The notes under the pieces were generated by a model. The model made no database searches, was not told where the DNA came from, and saw nothing but the letters and a program-made list of their open reading frames with translations. The translations under genes were made by a program, and so were the position numbers. From IMG/VR virus record IMGVR_UViG_3300032220_000751: 23,123 nucleotides of DNA. One strand, written 5' to 3'. This stretch comes from a virus. Its lineage: Duplodnaviria > Heunggongvirae > Uroviricota > Caudoviricetes. Below, one piece after another: positions 1,779-20,722 of this stretch (within the stretch, counting starts at the first letter, position 1; every line of letters begins with the position of its first letter).

Positions 1779-1802
1779 AGCCCAGGGAATAATCCCTGGG
1801 CT
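1779..1802 (+). terminator. hairpin, putative terminator
   Basis: AGCCCAGGGA-ATAA-TCCCTGGGCT (10-bp stem), followed by TTATGCCG. Confidence 0.7.
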
Positions 1803-1833
1803 TTATGCCGTCAAATACCTCATTCTAAATAAT

Positions 1834-5172: not shown

Positions 5173-5198
5173 AAGATCCCCTATTACTAGGGGGTCTT
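5173..5198 (+). terminator. hairpin, putative terminator
   Basis: AAGATCCCCTA-TTAC-TAGGGGGTCTT followed by TCTT. Confidence 0.6.
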
Positions 5199-8929: not shown

Positions 8930-9994
8930 ATGAGTGAAAGCAATCCACGCAACAAGGAAAGCTACATCGCGCTGGATGTCACGCCGGACACGCTTTCGGG
9001 CAACCTGTGGCGCATCCTGCCAGACGCTACACCGTTGCAGCATCAAGTCCTGCGCACTTTCATCACAGGCTTTGTCACCTTCTTTAAGCTCTATGTCAAC
9101 TATTTGGTTGCCGCAGACTATCCGGATTCCCCCATCCGGATGAAGGCTAAGCTGTCGACGACTCCCACAGATGGATCGGTCTATCTGGCTGTGGTGGGTC
9201 ACGACGAGGTGGAGTACATGAAGATCACTGTCACCAAGGATACCATTAACCAACATGGCATCGGTGAAGGTGGTCAGATCAGACTCTACCAGAACCCCAA
9301 GAACCGGGATAAGCAGGTACTGAAAGCTTACTCGGGATTACCAAAAGGCTGGGACGTCACAGGCGTCTATCAGAAGGTGCGTGACATTACCTTCGAGATG
9401 ATGGCCATCTTCAAAGCACAGGGTCTGTATTCGCGTATTAACCGTACCGGAGAAGACCGTGTTCTTTTGGAGGTGTCGTATCGTCAAAAGCCGGTCAATG
9501 TCAACTCACTGATGAAAGGAGAGCAAATGTTGCACACCGACATGAACTCATCCGAACCAGTCAACGAGTTCCATGAGGCTCGCCGTGCCAGTGCTGATTT
9601 CCGGCGCTCAGAGTGCTACCACAAGCTGTTACCCAAGTCCAGCGTGCGCATTCAGCTGCAACCTACGCTGATTCCCTTGGGTGATGTTCCGGTGAAGGAC
9701 AAGGCCACGAAGGAAGGTCGTGATGCCAATATCGATCAGACGATGATGTCAGAAGAAATCATTCGTCGTGCTATCGATAGCGGTGACGAAGTCGTGCAGC
9801 CGGTTGTGGAAGAAAGTACGGCAGTTGTCGATGATACGAAGGGGTTGGCTTTGGCTATTCTGAAGGGCGTGATGGACATCGTCCAGAACAATACGGCGTT
9901 GGGGTTGCCCTCTAACGTCATGCCTGAAAAGATGAACCTGAAGAACCCTCTGAAAGCCATCGTCAAGTGGGGCTTGAAGTTGAAGTTCGGTTAA
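8930..9994 (+). CDS. hypothetical protein (354 aa), immediately upstream of the Tas-like gene
   Basis: AAAAGGAG RBS; long ORF; no motif recognised. Confidence 0.8.
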   Translation: MSESNPRNKESYIALDVTPDTLSGNLWRILPDATPLQHQVLRTFITGFVTFFKLYVNYLVAADYPDSPIRMKAKLSTTPTDGSVYLAVVGHDEVEYMKITVTKDTINQHGIGEGGQIRLYQNPKNRDKQVLKAYSGLPKGWDVTGVYQKVRDITFEMMAIFKAQGLYSRINRTGEDRVLLEVSYRQKPVNVNSLMKGEQMLHTDMNSSEPVNEFHEARRASADFRRSECYHKLLPKSSVRIQLQPTLIPLGDVPVKDKATKEGRDANIDQTMMSEEIIRRAIDSGDEVVQPVVEESTAVVDDTKGLALAILKGVMDIVQNNTALGLPSNVMPEKMNLKNPLKAIVKWGLKLKFG

Positions 9995-10086: not shown

Positions 10087-11190
10087 ATGTCGAACGATAC
10101 CGAAAACAAGATGACCATGGAAGACATGGATGATGCCATCGAAGCCGATGATCTGATTCAAGAACAACGCCACATCCCGGACTCTGTCCTGGACGCCACG
10201 ATGGGCAAGCTGAACAAGGACATCAAGTCCGCAGCACTGAACCTGAACGTGCAAGAAGCTCGCTTCCTGGTCGACCAGTACTACTCCATGCAGAAGCAGC
10301 GTATCGGTAACGGTCAACGCGCCCTGGCCCTGTCCAAGACCAACGAACCCAACCTGGTGTTCGATCACCTGGGCAACGGCTTCCAGATGCTGGAAGACCA
10401 AGTCAAGAAGACCCTCGAAATCTTCGCGACTTCGCACTACATCGGCCGTTACATGATGTCGATCCGTGGTATCGGTCCGGTCATCGCCGCTGGTCTCATC
10501 GCCTACATCGGCGACATCTCCGCATGCCCGACGGTCGGTCACATCTGGGCCTACGGTGGCTATGATCCCAAGCGCAAGTGGATCGGTGCCACTGCGGCTG
10601 AGCGTACTTTCAAGGAAGCTTCGGCTACCACGGAAGATCTGCGTGAAATCGCGGCCATGATCGCTGAAGAAATCGGGACTTCCCGTGAGAACTTCTTCAA
10701 GCAGGTCGAGAACGCCGGTGGTTTCACCAAGGCCAACGTCATCTCGGTCGGCTCGCGCCGTCCGTGGAACGCCAAGCTGAAGGTGTTGTTCTGGAAGATC
10801 GGTCAGTCGTTCCTGAAGCAGCCCGCAGACAAGTGCCTGTATCGTGAAATCTACGATGCGCGCAAAGCCTACGAGCATGCCAAGAACGCCAAGGGCGAGT
10901 ACGCAGAAGAAGCCGCGCGCCTGCTGTCCGAGAAGAACTATGGCAAGACCACCGAGGCTTACAAGGCCATGATCCAAGGTCGTCTGTCCGATGGTCACAT
11001 CCATGCTCGCGCTTGCCGTTACGCTACCAAGATGTTCCTGTCCCACATCCATCAAGTGTGGTGGGAACACGTGACCAAGACCCCGGCTCCCAAGCCGTTC
11101 GCCATCGCTCAACTGGAACACGCGCACTTCATCGAGCCGCCTTTCTTCGCCGACGACCCCAAGGACGTCAAGAAGTACGGCAACCGCTAA
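10087..11190 (+). CDS. tasA: IS110/Nop-domain RNA-guided protein lacking a nuclease domain (TasA-like, TIGR-associated)
   Basis: Coiled-coil LVDQYYSMQKQRIG; Transposase_20/Nop-like MSIRGIGPVIAAGLIAYIGDISACPTVGHIWAYGGYDP; RPWNAKLKVLFWKIGQSF; YREIYDARKAYE; HIHARACRYATKMFLSHI. No N-terminal DEDD RuvC domain and no IS110 catalytic SG motif. Directly followed by a 36-nt dual-repeat array. Start 10087 is chosen from the AAAAGGA RBS (the track starts at 10057). The symbol refers to TIGR-associated TasA, not the Bacillus biofilm protein. Confidence 0.8.
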   Translation: MSNDTENKMTMEDMDDAIEADDLIQEQRHIPDSVLDATMGKLNKDIKSAALNLNVQEARFLVDQYYSMQKQRIGNGQRALALSKTNEPNLVFDHLGNGFQMLEDQVKKTLEIFATSHYIGRYMMSIRGIGPVIAAGLIAYIGDISACPTVGHIWAYGGYDPKRKWIGATAAERTFKEASATTEDLREIAAMIAEEIGTSRENFFKQVENAGGFTKANVISVGSRRPWNAKLKVLFWKIGQSFLKQPADKCLYREIYDARKAYEHAKNAKGEYAEEAARLLSEKNYGKTTEAYKAMIQGRLSDGHIHARACRYATKMFLSHIHQVWWEHVTKTPAPKPFAIAQLEHAHFIEPPFFADDPKDVKKYGNR

Positions 11191-11204
11191 TTTAGCGGCA
11201 TAAG

Positions 11205-11226
11205 GGGCTAGGGTTTCCCCTAGCCC
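11205..11226. terminator. hairpin between the Tas-like gene and the array
   Basis: GGGCTAGGG-TTTC-CCCTAGCCC. No T-tract on the + strand; on the - strand it is followed by TTATGCCG. A second inverted repeat, CCGCTAA-T-TTAGCGG, spans the stop codon (11184-11198). Confidence 0.55.
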
Positions 11227-11248
11227 TATGGTATCCTGCACAATCGAT

Positions 11249-13668
11249 AGTATCATCACCGACGTGTGAGTCAGTCTTACAGTCAGTATCAAAGTTAAAG
11301 TACGAATCTACGGAAGAAACAGTATCGATGAGTGTAAATGAACCTAAATGCCAATCAGTATCATACTAGGTTAGTGAGTCCTGAGTGAGGGACAGTATCA
11401 ATGTAGTAAAACGATCCATCCAAAAGCACAGTATCAGCTAATGTGTGAGAAACATGTTTGATAAGTGTACCACAACTAACGTTTGAATCTAAATATCAAA
11501 CAGTAACATATCGAATGTGTGAACCAACACTCGATTGAGTACCATAACGAATGTGTGAACCGATAGACCATACAGTATCAGAACACCCGTTTGAGTCTTT
11601 TAGTCCAACAGTAACTTAACGATAGATCGAATCAAGCTGGATAAAGTACCGTATAGCCGGGATGAATCAAGCCAATGATCAGTATCAATGTTGAGAAATG
11701 AACCCAGCCGTCAGTTAGTATCTAAAGAATTGCGTGAACCTTTATAACAGGGAGTATCAAGATTATGGAGTGAATCCAATCCGGCGATCAGTATCAAAAG
11801 AAGTAGGTGAGCCACGCCTTCAGCTAGTAACAATGTCTTTAGTCGAACCAGAGATTGTAACTGTATCAGAGTCCGAGAGTGAATCTAGGCCCATAACAGT
11901 ACCATATCGGATATATGAACCGAAAACCAAATCAGTATCGAGAACAGTGAGTGAAACAGAACAAGTCGGAGTACCAAGGTGAAGTATTGAACCAACATAC
12001 GCGTAGAGTATCAAGATGCCTGTGTGAACCCCGGCCCTTGTGAGTACCTTAAGTGGTAAGTGAATCAGCAACGAAGTCAGTATCATCCCACTTGTGTGAG
12101 TCATATGCGCTGTTAGTATCAAAATCTCCAACGAGTCATTTTTATAGTCAGTATCTATCTATCTGTGCGAGCCACTATCGCCGTCAGTAACAGCTATGCC
12201 GTGCCAATCCCAGTAACGGACAGTATCTCATTGTAAGCGTGAACCTTAGAAGTGAGCAGTATCAGGCAAGAGTAGTGAATCGTTTCACAGGACTGTATCA
12301 ATAAAAGTGTATGAACCAGTACATGTTGTCAGTACCAAGATGAAATGGTGAGCCATTGAGACGAGTAGTATCGTAGCGTTGAAGTGAAACAATTTTGGTA
12401 ACAGTACCGTAAAATACGGTTGAATCTTTGTGCCAGAGCGTATCAAGCATCCAAGTATGAACCGCTGAAACAGTCAACATCATGAGTGATTTGTGAATCT
12501 TGAGATGAGGCAGTATCAATAAATGTAAATGAACCGATGAATTTGTCAGTATCTTAATCTGAACGTGAAACATTAGAGCGTCAGTACCTTATAATGCATT
12601 TGAAACAGGCGGAATAACGGTATCTTAGGGAACGTTTGAACCCATGATTTGAATAGTTCCGTTGTTGATCAGTGAATCAATGCGATAGTCTGTATCTTCC
12701 AATTTGAATGAACCACGCTTGACATCAGTACCATCACAAAAGGGTGAATCCAATAGCCCCAGCGTATCGTAGATGCAGCATGAATCATGTGCAAGTAGGA
12801 GTGCCATAATGACATAATGAAACACGTACCGCAAGAGTACCTCACTATTAGATTGAGTCAGCATTGCGACAGTATCGACAGTCCCGCATGAACCGCCTCA
12901 TTAGTTAGTATCGTAGAGCTAGTGTGAGTCATCACGTACATCAGTATCGTCGATTTAATACGAACCTTTTAGAGAGCAGTATCTTAGTGCATCAGTGAAC
13001 CTCCCGAAGGCGATAGTATCATTATAATCGCTTGATCCTCTTAGCCTGTCAGTACCACCACAATGGAGTGAACCAACCATCCTGTCAGTATCGTTAAAGA
13101 AGCGTGAATCGTGTTCCCTGTCAGTGCCATTATTATAGTTTGAACCTCTCTTTTCGTCAGTAACTTATCATGGGTGTGAACCAACTACGTGAACAGTACC
13201 ATATGGTGAATGTGAAACTGGCTAGCTGTCAGTAACATATCAAATGCTTGAATCAGATTTATCGATAGTATCGTTGATTTAGTTTGAACCGCGAAGATTG
13301 AAGGTGTCATTATTCACAAGTGAACCAGATATTGCATTAGTATCATAAAGTCGAGGTGAAACAAGGTTTTAGTCCGTACCTTATGGATAGTTTGAAACTA
13401 TGTGCGCGACAGTATCTTTAAGCTTAATTGAACCACGGATTCTGTCAGTATCTTGAGAAAGAGGTGAAACTTCGCTGGAAACAGTATCGTAATAACAAAT
13501 TGAAACAGTGTCGGAAAGAGTACCATTTATCTTGTTTGAACCCCTAGAGCCGTCAGTTTCATTATGTTGACGTGAACCGCGAGCCTAGTTAGTAACATAT
13601 CAGAGATGTGAACCAGCCAAGCAGTTAGTATCTTCAATGAAGTGTGAAACATTTTACTTGTCAGTATC
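11249..13668 (+). repeat. TIGR-like dual-repeat guide-RNA array: 67 units of ~36 nt plus a terminal box
   Basis: Parsed by hand as [AGTATC-like box]-12 nt-[TGAACC-like box]-12 nt, e.g. AGTATC atcaccgacgtg TGAGTC agtcttacagtc AGTATC. First-to-last box A spans 2414 nt = 67x36+2 (seven 37-nt and five 35-nt units). Box A is exactly AGTATC in 34/68 copies and every box ends in C. The 3 nt before each box are semi-conserved (GTC, GTG), giving ~9-nt repeats and ~9-nt variable spacers. The transcribed strand is inferred from the flanking genes. Confidence 0.9.
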
Positions 13669-13709
13669 TCAATATCAGATTGCAAGAAATTACAACAAGG
13701 AGAAGTATT

Positions 13710-14084
13710 ATGAACATCATCAAAGCCATCAAGACTGTCGGTGCAGTAGCGATATTCTTTGTAGCAGCGTTCATCGCCCCTCATGAGGCTGATGCACGTA
13801 CTACGGACGAGTTTACCATTCCGGTCATTGGGAAGACCGACGATGGTAAGTACTCTCGCTTCGACCTCGAAGGAGATCTGGAAGACATCAAGTGGTTCAC
13901 CAACACCACCAACTATGTCTATACCAGCGGGGATCTCCTGGTGCGTCTTCCCTTCATCAAGAAGGAAGATATCGATAAGGGTACCTACGTATGCAAATTT
14001 GTCTGCAAGGACAAAGAGGGATACATCGTGGGTCAACCTGAATCCAACCGCGTATATCTGAAAATGCGCAATAAAGCACCATAA
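13710..14084 (+). CDS. hypothetical protein with N-terminal signal peptide/TM (124 aa)
   Basis: AAGGAG RBS favours ATG 13710 (the track start 13644 lies inside the array); MNIIKAIKTVGAVAIFFVAAFIAPHEADA is signal-peptide-like. Confidence 0.8.
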   Translation: MNIIKAIKTVGAVAIFFVAAFIAPHEADARTTDEFTIPVIGKTDDGKYSRFDLEGDLEDIKWFTNTTNYVYTSGDLLVRLPFIKKEDIDKGTYVCKFVCKDKEGYIVGQPESNRVYLKMRNKAP

Positions 14085-14089
14085 GCTAA

Positions 14090-14108
14090 GCAGGACGATA
14101 GTTCCTGC
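14090..14108 (+). terminator. short hairpin, possible terminator
   Basis: GCAGGA-CGATAGT-TCCTGC followed by ACTTATGCCC. Confidence 0.4.
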
Positions 14109-14144
14109 ACTTATGCCCTCAATTACTGTATCAGGGGAGTAAAC

Positions 14145-14399
14145 ATGCCCATCATCACGTGGCTTGAAAAGGTCATCTTAGCATTGGATGTAAGTCCGAT
14201 GTGGATGCTGAGTATTTTCATTTTCGTCATCCAGATGGTAGCAGTCATACTTGCAGGAGCAATCTTCTTCGGATGGTTGTTCCGTGACTGGATTGCAGCT
14301 GCCATGGGTGAAACTTATAGCGAATACAAACGTCGCTTTAAGTTTGGCTATTTCCGCCACCGACGCCTGACTAAAGGCACTCGTATCAAACAACGTTAA
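14145..14399 (+). CDS. small membrane protein (84 aa)
   Basis: GGGGAG RBS; long hydrophobic segment and basic tail. Confidence 0.7.
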   Translation: MPIITWLEKVILALDVSPMWMLSIFIFVIQMVAVILAGAIFFGWLFRDWIAAAMGETYSEYKRRFKFGYFRHRRLTKGTRIKQR

Positions 14400-14421
14400 A
14401 ATCAGAAAGGCAAATACCACT

Positions 14422-14793
14422 ATGACCACCGCCATCGTTCAGAAGGAAGTTAACATGCTGACCCATCAAGCAGAAATCAAGATGCTGAAGGCTGTCTTCA
14501 GCTTGCTGTTCAAGATCAACATGGAACGTTCGGTCGACACGCTGATGGACGATCTGCAGGATCCGCAATACATGGTTCCGGCTCTCGCCACGTTGCGCGA
14601 CACCACGGAAAACGACTTCCTGCTCAAGCAGACTGACATCATCCACTGGTCGCTCCAGTACCTGATTCAAGAAGTCGGCAAGCCGTCGGTGGATGCACCG
14701 TACATCAGCACGCTGTCGGGTGACGGCATGGTTGCAGCACAAGCAGCCATCGCACACCTGAACCAGAAGGTCATCAAGACTCTGGCGGCATAA
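14422..14793 (+). CDS. hypothetical helical protein (123 aa)
   Basis: AAAGG RBS; codon bias like its neighbours. Confidence 0.75.
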   Translation: MTTAIVQKEVNMLTHQAEIKMLKAVFSLLFKINMERSVDTLMDDLQDPQYMVPALATLRDTTENDFLLKQTDIIHWSLQYLIQEVGKPSVDAPYISTLSGDGMVAAQAAIAHLNQKVIKTLAA

Positions 14794-14801
14794 TGCCAAG
14801 T

Positions 14802-14939
14802 GTAGGTGATGTGTATTCCAAATAATCGAGAATACATATCACCTACTTGATTATAGATAGAAATATCTGTAGCGATGTCCACTTCTCCTCTTAATCTAAG
14901 AGCAGGGTAGGCTTACGCTTATCTTGCTCTTAGATTAGG
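14802..14939. other. two long tandem hairpins in a 190-nt intergenic region
   Basis: 14802-14846: 17-bp stem GTAGGTGATGTGTATTC/GAATACATATCACCTAC. 14890-14939: ~23-bp stem (several G:U) with a TTAC loop. Confidence 0.65.
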
Positions 14940-14983
14940 GGGATATATACCCTATCTTTTCTTTTTGCCCTCAGGAGATAACC

Positions 14984-15130
14984 ATGGACCTCATCTATGA
15001 CTTCATCAAAGAAAACCCGGTCTTAGCCGTACTGTCGTACTGGACGATCGCTGGTATCGCGTTTGCGATCTGGGCGATCAAGTGCACACGTCGAGAAGAC
15101 AACGAAAAGAAGAAACACACCGAAGGCTAA
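14984..15130 (+). CDS. 48-aa single-TM peptide (not in ORF track)
   Basis: AGGAG RBS; MDLIYDFIKENPVLAVLSYWTIAGIAFAIWAIKCTRREDNEKKKHTEG. Confidence 0.7.
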   Translation: MDLIYDFIKENPVLAVLSYWTIAGIAFAIWAIKCTRREDNEKKKHTEG

Positions 15131-15186
15131 AAAGCCTATCTACAATAATTGCAGTATCTATTTATCCTAACTAATGGAGAATCACC

Positions 15187-15543
15187 ATGAAAGCAATCCA
15201 CAACTTCTACATCTACTCCACCGTCATTTCCCTGGTGGCAATTCAACTGGCCGGCGTGTACTACAACAGCAAGCTCTACGCTGAAGTGCATGCATTCGTT
15301 GCCAAGTGGAACATCTTGGCTCATCCCTCCCACTACAAGAAGGTCTACACGTCGTACTCCATCGTCGGCTGGACGATCCTCTCGTTCATCCCGTTCATCA
15401 ACCTCTTAGCAGCACTGTTTGTACCCTGCTGGTTCTACGTCACCTACAGCACGGAGAAAGACCGGATGTCGGGTATCGAACTCGGTACCGCTCATGACAT
15501 CCGTCTGTCCGCCCTTCTCGAAGGACTGGATCAACCCGCCTAA
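15187..15543 (+). CDS. membrane protein, 2 TM (118 aa)
   Basis: GGAG RBS; two hydrophobic segments (…WTILSFIPFINLLAALFVPCWF). Confidence 0.75.
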   Translation: MKAIHNFYIYSTVISLVAIQLAGVYYNSKLYAEVHAFVAKWNILAHPSHYKKVYTSYSIVGWTILSFIPFINLLAALFVPCWFYVTYSTEKDRMSGIELGTAHDIRLSALLEGLDQPA

Positions 15544-19426: not shown

Positions 19427-19449
19427 AGGGGAGGAAACTCTCCTCCCCT
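19427..19449 (+). terminator. hairpin, putative terminator
   Basis: AGGGGAGG-AAACTCT-CCTCCCCT followed by TT. Confidence 0.5.
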
Positions 19450-20182: not shown

Positions 20183-20722
20183 ATGACTGATACCAATGTT
20201 GACTCGCCGCAAGCTTTTGAAGACGTCATGCGAGTCAAGGAAAAAGTGGCGGACTACGATGACGTGTTGATTGGCTTGGGTCGTTTGGCTCAAGCCTTCA
20301 AAGACGACATGACCATGTACGCCATTCTGATCATGAACGATCGGCGTAACGAGTCTCAGCGTACGGTCGCGGTGGCCAGCTACTATCAGAAGTTTGGTCA
20401 CCTTCCCGACACCCAGGCGAAGATGGGCATTGCCTGGGAAGAGTACGAGGGTGTTCTGAAGCCTCGTATGCAGCGGTTGCTGTCGGAAGCCATCAACAGC
20501 GAGATCGAAGCTGAAAATCGTGAAATGCAAGCCAAGATCACCAAGCTGCAAAACGAGATGCTTGCACAAATGCGCAAGACCCATCAACCGCATCAACTGG
20601 GTACCGTCAATGAGATCGCACAGAAGTACGGGATCTCGAAGTCGGAAGTTCGCCGTCTGAAGTCCGAAGGCAAGCTGGAAGAGTTCGTGCAAGAACGTGA
20701 AAGTGGTTCTGGTAAGTCATAA
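20183..20722 (+). CDS. coiled-coil protein with C-terminal helix-turn-helix
   Basis: TVNEIAQKYGISKSEVRRLKSEGKL fits an excisionase/MerR-like HTH; preceded by a heptad-like coiled coil. Confidence 0.7.
   Translation: MTDTNVDSPQAFEDVMRVKEKVADYDDVLIGLGRLAQAFKDDMTMYAILIMNDRRNESQRTVAVASYYQKFGHLPDTQAKMGIAWEEYEGVLKPRMQRLLSEAINSEIEAENREMQAKITKLQNEMLAQMRKTHQPHQLGTVNEIAQKYGISKSEVRRLKSEGKLEEFVQERESGSGKS

Follow-up and report, generated by a model that had tools for sequence, protein, structure and literature searches.

A dual-repeat TIGR-TasA locus with a 67-unit guide array in the DNA of a probable jumbo phage

The DNA analysed here, hereafter the window, is a 23,123-nucleotide (nt) stretch from an uncultured virus of the class Caudoviricetes (IMG/VR record IMGVR_UViG_3300032220_000751), in which a gene for a nuclease-free Nop-domain protein, tasA, is followed by an array of 36-nt units built on two alternating repeats. 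Our analyses identify this locus as a real and well-formed example of the published TIGR-TasA family, notable for the length of its array, its jumbo-phage carrier, and two peculiarities of its protein. Apart from the tyrosine of the processing dyad, a position often occupied by Phe in the subfamily, it shows all those hallmarks of dual-repeat TIGR-TasA systems that could be tested. We consider it probable, although well short of certain, that the locus is such a system of an uncultured jumbo phage and works by the mechanism proposed below.

Layout of the array and its recurrence in related phages

The array lies on the + strand (Table 1), its first box 58 nt past the stop of the tasA open reading frame (ORF), and comprises 67 complete units and a closing edge box when counted by anchoring on the boxes. 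Base identity within it is 0.43 at a lag of 36 nt, 0.40 at a lag of 72 and 0.34 at a lag of 18, other lags giving ~0.25-0.30, and the units measure 36 nt in 55 cases, 37 nt in seven, and 35 nt in five. The edge box, AGTAYC, keeps G2 and T3 each in 67 of its 68 copies and C6 in all 68, and the loop box, TGAAYC, keeps its G in 66 of 67 copies and its A and C in every one; both boxes lie within the consensus in 59 of the 67 units. Three weakly conserved bases stand 5' of each box (R-W-C and R-N-G), and the nine positions 3' of it are near-random, with an information content of at most 0.25 bit after the loop box. It is this succession of three weak, six strong, and nine near-random positions that gives the layout of a 9-nt edge repeat, a 9-nt spacer A, a 9-nt loop repeat, and a 9-nt spacer B. 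The cleaner array of a related locus, L007, gives the identical 9+9+9+9 layout (GATAGTAAC.. / GATTGAAAC..). The edge xGUAYC(A) and loop UGAAYC(A) have in common G2, A4, Y5, C6, and an A-biased next base (box D on the 5' side, box C on the 3' side), a sharing that is also seen in L007 (GAUAGUAACA / GAUUGAAACA), and on the + strand the loop repeat reads UGAACC(A), that is, in the published order of a box D (UG) start and a box C (CCA) end. All 67 spacer pairs are distinct. A preliminary description, made from the sequence alone, had set out the coordinates of the array, its box consensus, its 36-nt dual-repeat architecture, its 67 units, and its distance from the upstream stop, all of which proved correct.

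The array is not reported by Tandem Repeats Finder, because only 12-18 of 36 positions are conserved, and Rfam and tRNA scans found nothing. In 10 of 11 sub-windows its RNA is less prone to fold than dinucleotide-shuffled sequence (mean z +1.34), as one would expect of guides that have to remain single-stranded. No polarity is evident from the repeat consensus, whose change along the array is not significant (Spearman rho 0.19 and 0.17; P 0.13 and 0.16); the off-length units all fall within units 4-49 (12 of 12) and none among the last 18 (P 0.015, for a cut chosen post hoc). A CRISPR-Cas system was ruled out by the two alternating 9-nt repeats with 9-nt spacers, as opposed to one 25-36-nt repeat with a ~30-nt spacer, and the ten largest neighbouring proteins gave no match to a Cas family.

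Related loci carry arrays of the same kind. A word-based search returned 368 TasA homologues, the contigs of seven were examined, and the arrays of six distinct lineages (L001, L002, L003/L004, L006, L007, and L009) were inspected unit by unit. In all six a 36-nt array stands beside the tasA homologue: ~43 units with the same AGTATC/TGAAYC boxes in L001 (79% identity), ~50 units with the edge box ATTTCA on the 298-kb contig of L002 (60% identity), ~18 units with the edge box GAGCACC in L003/L004 (51% identity), ~29 units in L006, ~13 in L007, and ~16 in L009, where the array lies upstream of the gene. A seventh contig, L008, shows a lag-36 signal adjoining the gene. The loop box (TGAAYC/TGAAAC) is kept in every inspected lineage and the edge box varies; in L002, box D of the edge repeat has diverged, and the loop repeat does not follow suit. 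The longest arrays, of 43-67 units, belong to the three closest proteins (at least 60% identity). The supposition that homologues generally lack adjacent arrays thus fails, since all six inspected lineages carry one, and the linkage between gene and array is borne out. Megablast and tblastn searches of 50,697 GenBank phage records gave no match, and an IMG/VR peptide-pattern scan found no relative.

This recurrence bears on the explanation that the repeats act at the level of DNA, for example as an iteron or a centromere-like array that binds protein, or are decaying repeats beside a relic IS110-type gene. The boxes are indeed short and degenerate, with 12 units off-length and 8 carrying deviant boxes, but the dual-box layout, the strand-specific box order, and the linkage to the gene recur in six other lineages with wholly different spacers, strain differences spare the boxes, and the neighbouring protein is an intact, well-folding Tas protein that keeps its functional residues and has no IS110 DEDD domain. 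We regard such a DNA element or relic as extremely improbable.

The TasA protein

TasA consists of an acidic N-terminal extension (residues 1-37), a coiled coil (~45-115), and a Nop domain (~118-355). It matches Pfam PF02371 (Transposase_20; E 3.9e-7) and no other Pfam domain, as well as PHROG 4285 (E 1.5e-46), and as a single sequence finds TasR (PDB 9MTY; E 1.5e-16) as its best solved relative, followed by TasH. A family profile built from 57 homologues, which also supplied the AlphaFold2 alignment, matched TasR 9MTY from TasR residue 123 (E 2.8e-29), TasH from residue 88 (E 9.7e-17), and IS621/ISCro4 at ~1e-6 (1.6e-6), IS621 being aligned only from its residue 133. Because these alignments start past the nuclease domains of TasR and TasH, TasA is a coiled coil plus a Nop part without a nuclease domain. 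The AlphaFold2 model is all-helical and confident, with a predicted local distance difference test score (pLDDT) of 90.2 against 37.7 for a single-sequence run, and in a Foldseek search of the PDB its top 11 matches are all TasH or TasR (probability 1.00), the IS110-type IS621 and ISCro4 coming next at ranks 12-21. A comparison by hhalign with SpTasH, translated from Salicola phage CGphi29, is in agreement with this (probability 98.3%). The earlier assignment of the protein to the Nop fold is upheld by these lines of evidence, and the starting points in TasR, TasH, and IS621 likewise support the earlier statement that it has neither a nuclease nor a DEDD domain. An IS110 transposase was considered and rejected: only the Transposase_20 region matches, a helical insertion stands where IS110 has its Ser loop, and the lack of a DEDD domain excludes such an enzyme. 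Nor were any inverted-repeat or transposon ends seen at the locus.

Trp236 and Lys244 align with W203 and K211 of SpTasH, the aromatic and basic residues of helix alpha-4 that keep the DNA unwinding junction stable; W236 is conserved in at least 90% of the homologues and K244 is invariant. His345, found in 57 of 57 homologues, aligns with H296 of SpTasH, the catalytic His of tigRNA processing, whose partner in a Tyr/His dyad is Tyr289, and a second His, H347, is present in 54 of 57. The C-terminal loop has a low pLDDT, which is consistent with flexibility. Two regions set the protein apart. Between GYDP and RRPWN lies a 55-residue four-helix insertion (residues ~166-221), found in ~30% of close homologues, which occupies the place of the TasR wedge loop, known to separate the strands, and of the beta-hairpin with which SpTasH docks or recruits its nuclease domain; a helix-hairpin-helix match in this insertion was weak and not significant (Pfam, E 0.23). 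The other is the 37-residue acidic N-terminal extension, common only to TasA and its two closest relatives; the ~44 residues that precede the coiled coil are modelled as one acidic helix.

Modelling also suggests that TasA dimerises through its coiled coil. The homodimer model has an ipSAE of 0.52, against 0.00 for the best control; its interface, residues 45-109, is formed by the two coiled-coil helices, the runs have at least 65% of contacts in common, and the partner pLDDT is at least 77. Of 30 proteins solved as one-chain pairs 20 reach this mark, and of 23 with single-chain structures 1 does; as Tas dimers have already been solved, the pass may show likeness more than independent proof.

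The position of the insertion bears on an explanation in which TasA and its guides are a targeting module only, and a second factor acts at the target, for example a nuclease in trans, a ParB-like protein, a recombinase, or a host factor, recruited via the clade-specific four-helix insertion or the acidic N-terminus. The insertion sits exactly at the site of the nuclease-recruiting beta-hairpin of SpTasH and of the TasR wedge loop, TasA-ParB operons are known from the literature, and the gene upstream of tasA (8930-9994) is conserved and syntenic in L002 (35% identity, E 1e-40). On the other hand, that gene matches no known family, and L003, L006, and L009 lack it upstream of tasA; no partner was identified, and the insertion is present in only ~30% of close homologues, yet all examined homologues keep their arrays. 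A division of labour of this kind is unlikely, and a TasA that acts by occupying DNA remains our preferred reading.

Guides, flanks, and proposed mechanism

By homology with published Tas systems, we propose that transcription of tasA and the array proceeds from the + strand and probably yields a single transcript that reads through the hairpin at 11204-11227. TasA would dimerise via its coiled coil (residues ~45-110), the Nop domain of each protomer gripping box D and box C of one repeat, and the flexible C-terminal loop with the invariant His345 would cut the precursor inside the edge repeats into up to 67 tigRNAs of ~36 nt. In each tigRNA, the two spacers would pair with opposite DNA strands, spacer A on one and spacer B on the neighbouring stretch of the other, over 16-18 base pairs (bp) and independently of a protospacer-adjacent motif, with Trp236/Lys244 holding the unwinding junction open. 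The nuclease-free complex would then stay on the DNA and block transcription, perhaps also replication. As targets, host DNA or competing mobile elements are the most likely, in preference to neighbouring phage genes. TasA proteins have been reported to bind 36-nt tigRNAs, and a 2026 preprint describes how MbTasA and dead TasR proteins bind their DNA targets and act as repressors of transcription in E. coli reporter assays (10.64898/2026.09.09.750476). The preliminary description had called the function of nuclease-free versions unresolved; with RNA-guided repression since shown for MbTasA (10.64898/2026.09.09.750476), that statement is now partly outdated.

No sigma-70-type promoters or intrinsic terminators were found around the locus beyond chance, and the motif AGTACAA, which occurs upstream of tasA, shows no enrichment (5 copies against 2.3 expected); every gene of the window lies on the + strand. 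The 63-nt segment between the tasA stop and the array, which holds the 11204-11227 hairpin, has a predicted fold of -24 kcal/mol, and hairpins with a CTAGGG...CCCTAG core occupy the matching place in L001 and L002. A simple terminator scan did not call this hairpin, which may protect the 3' end of the tasA mRNA once the array has been cut off. A leader half-unit begins exactly 18 nt before the first full edge box, and the next gene after the array starts at 13710 with its own ribosome-binding site; the L001 array, unlike that of the window, ends in a strong GC hairpin. In two relatives, L009 (4376-4412) and L007 (5880-5907), the first array unit lies within ~10 nt of a strong hairpin, which leaves no room for a promoter, and these arrays therefore seem to be transcribed by read-through of the hairpin. 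GC-rich hairpins without a U-tract are also found in many intergenic gaps of the window (1779-1803, 2886-2906, 5178-5197, 11204-11227, and 19427-19448), several of them built around CTAG (CCCTAGG, CTAGGG), and they are probably phage-specific terminators or RNA-processing sites.

Targets of the guides were sought in the 20.6 kb of window DNA outside the array and in related loci totalling ~97 kb. One model fixed the site at 18 bp and compared the window guides with the window and L001-L003 in both TIGR geometries and four control geometries; the best window match was 14/18, and L002 had a single 16/18 match, a score that the controls also attained. When the half-sites were allowed flexible spacing (gaps of -1 to +6), nothing reached 15/16, and all seven arrays against 118 kb gave 10 matches at 15/16, compared with 13-17 in the controls. 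If all 67 guides hit a ~250-kb genome uniformly, the probability of finding none in 20.6 kb would be ~0.003, which makes wholesale self-targeting unlikely and leaves room for a minority of self-targeting guides. For larger collections, it has been pointed out that chance matches to 16-18-mers are expected in databases of that size (Xu et al.).

These searches weigh on the possibility that the guides regulate the genome of the phage itself, for example in a timed shut-off of early genes, with targets outside the window. Regulation of the viral life cycle is among the possible roles listed by Xu et al., and the spacers are AT-rich, like intergenic and promoter DNA. Against this, no guide beats the controls in the 20.6 kb of flanking DNA with either fixed or flexible geometry (P ~0.003 if targets were uniform), and no spacer is common to the window and the 79%-identical L001, although both phages share genes. 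We hold self-regulation to be very unlikely, and silencing of host or competing DNA continues to be favoured here.

Spacer GC is 38.7% as compared with 49.8% in the flanks, and the arrays of relatives are likewise AT-richer than their surroundings. Spacer A is unrelated to the reverse complement of spacer B, and no spacer pair of the window recurs in L001, L002, or L003, the only near-shared spacer being at chance level. Near-duplicates among the A spacers (at most 1 mismatch) form 5 pairs against 1.1 expected, a number reached by 3 of 500 shuffles; the B spacers show no such excess, and the B partners of near-duplicate A spacers are unrelated. One family of A spacers resembling ATATCGAAT is found in units 8, 9, 19, 56, and 66, each with an unrelated spacer B, and could reflect half-unit duplication or a shared target motif; outside the array, ATATCGAAT shows no enrichment.

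Near-identical pieces of the array are found on DNA contigs of other studies (a biofilm study of 2019 and freshwater runs filed in 2024 and 2025), some of them identical to the window array, for example over 13061-13628. A contig of the 2019 biofilm metagenome joins position 12456 to 12529, skipping exactly 72 nt, or two units, and in the piece that adjoins this junction (12205-12456) 28 of 252 bases differ, mostly in spacers. The 22 listed differences within the array comprise 16 in spacers, 3 in weak repeat positions, and 3 in boxes (binomial P 0.026), a pattern that is only a hint because the contigs are short and of low depth. It suggests that boxes are constrained while spacers drift and whole units come and go.

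Several observations weigh against the system working as proposed. The published repression was seen with other TasA proteins and in heterologous hosts; none of the guides has a match in the window or related loci that exceeds the wrong-geometry controls; the terminator scan found no terminator 3' of the array; and among the sequencing runs carrying the locus no RNA run is listed. In the protein, the position of SpTasH Tyr289 is taken by Phe338 (among the 57 homologues, 29 have Phe, 27 Tyr, and 1 Trp), and with Phe in place of the catalytic Tyr autonomous guide processing may be weaker or work differently. In the array, 12 of the 67 units deviate in length (35 or 37 nt) and 8 of 67 carry a deviant box, so that not every unit need be functional.

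A bolder version of the proposal, which we think quite unlikely, is that the clade formed by the window, L001, and L002 represents a functional TasA variant of jumbo phages, in which a very large set of 43-67 guides would broadly silence host or rival DNA in the course of infection, the insertion at the wedge position would serve as an added DNA clamp or effector dock, processing would be Tyr-free (for example by His345/His347 or a host RNase), and ATATCGAAT-like guides would read a recurring motif, such as a promoter element, beside variable flanks.

Table 1. Features of the tasA locus (window coordinates)
Feature	Position	Strand	Description	Basis
tasA	10087-11190	+	367-residue nuclease-free Tas protein	ORF, profiles, AlphaFold2 model
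Hairpin	11204-11227	+	10 bp (GGGGCTAGGG / CCCTAGCCCT, loop TTTC), between tasA stop and array, without U-tract	
Leader half-unit	11231-11248	+	Degenerate; edge-like GGTATC + 12 nt, without loop box	Direct sequence reading
Array	11249-13668	+	First AGTATC at 11249; last (68th) edge box at 13663-13668	Periodicity, box anchoring, box order, RNA folding
ATATCGAAT-like spacers A	11508-11516, 11544-11552, 11904-11912, 13237-13245, 13597-13605			
Array tail	13669-13709	+	Degenerate, loop-like TGCAAG	Sequence reading and terminator scan

Phage context and relation to known systems

The carrier is taken to be a jumbo phage (>200 kb) because an exact copy of one window protein occurs on 17 contigs, eight of which belong to the 0.2-1 Mb class, and because the 298-kb contig of L002 is syntenic with the window over a 2OG-Fe(II) oxygenase, the gene upstream of tasA, tasA itself, and the array. 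No link between TIGR-Tas and jumbo phages was found in the literature searched, and the words "jumbo" and "phiKZ" and the names of the relatives' contigs are absent from those supplements of Faure et al. that were examined. Nearly all of the ten largest neighbouring proteins are without a family match. Neither Pfam nor PHROG gave a match to the 354-residue protein encoded immediately upstream of tasA, which is kept at the same position in L002. The oxygenase (831-1505; PF13640, E 6.7e-13; PHROG 61) is syntenic with a 223-residue homologue in L002, and a 179-residue protein (20183-20722) shows weak helix-turn-helix matches (sigma-70 region 4, HTH_17, and an excisionase-type PHROG) with E of ~4e-4 to 8e-3, all below the curated cut-offs. 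Among the relatives, the T4-like phage contig of L003 encodes a full methyl-accepting chemotaxis protein (13840-15381; 4HB_MCP, HAMP, MCPsignal) and also carries queuosine-pathway and thymidylate genes.

Among known systems, the locus is closest in kind to the dual-repeat TIGR-TasA systems, such as FpTasA of Flavonifractor plautii (Faure et al. 2025, PMC12045711), with which it shares a solo nuclease-free coiled-coil and Nop protein, carriage by a phage, adjoining 36-nt units that run from edge repeat through 9-nt spacer A and loop repeat to 9-nt spacer B, and the box D/C order in both repeats. Published dual-repeat arrays have a mean of 15.9 units (65,635 tigRNAs in 4,126 arrays) and "most often 5 to 15", whereas the 67 units found here amount to ~4 times the mean; the 55-residue Nop insertion, the 37-residue acidic N-terminus, Phe at the processing Tyr, and an array without a terminator are further differences. 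SpTIGR-TasH of Salicola phage CGphi29 (PDB 9W03, 9W04, and 21KL) has the same coiled-coil/Nop core, W/K pair, processing His, and dual-repeat array, but TasA of the window lacks its HNH domain, has Phe338 for Tyr289, and carries the four-helix insertion in place of the beta-hairpin, and the spacers of SpTasH are 8 nt long. TaTIGR-TasR of a Thermoproteota archaeon (PDB 9MTY), the best sequence match among solved structures, uses a 36-nt tigRNA with 9-nt spacers and repeats that start with UG and end with CCA, to be compared with the core UGAAYC(A) / AGUAYC(A) of the window repeats; its RuvC domain is missing from TasA of the window.

The nuclease-free MbTasA and PlTasA (10.64898/2026.09.09.750476, 10.64898/2026.08.11.744272) show RNA-guided DNA binding, and MbTasA represses transcription reversibly, which is the functional model adopted here for TasA of the window. 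They differ in using stem-loop tigRNAs and in lacking the C-terminal Tyr/His loop, whereas the present locus is dual-repeat and keeps the loop and its His. The IS110/IS621 bridge-RNA recombinases (PDB 8WT6 and 9T56) share the Nop-like RNA-binding domain, the coiled coil, and PF02371, but the window locus has no DEDD/RuvC domain and carries its guides in an array instead of a single bridge RNA.

Together, these data leave the picture of the family unchanged, and the locus is useful rather than surprising. The exchange of Phe for Tyr and the insertion at the wedge position raise simple structure-function questions. In the young field of TIGR-Tas, the main open questions concern the natural targets of the guides and the way in which arrays grow, and the locus holds one of the larger natural guide sets, its 67 distinct pairs belonging to a phage met with in several metagenome studies. 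Because of this large guide set, and of strain variants with spacer-centred differences and gain or loss of units, it is a reasonable model for multi-guide target hunting and for the evolution of TIGR arrays.

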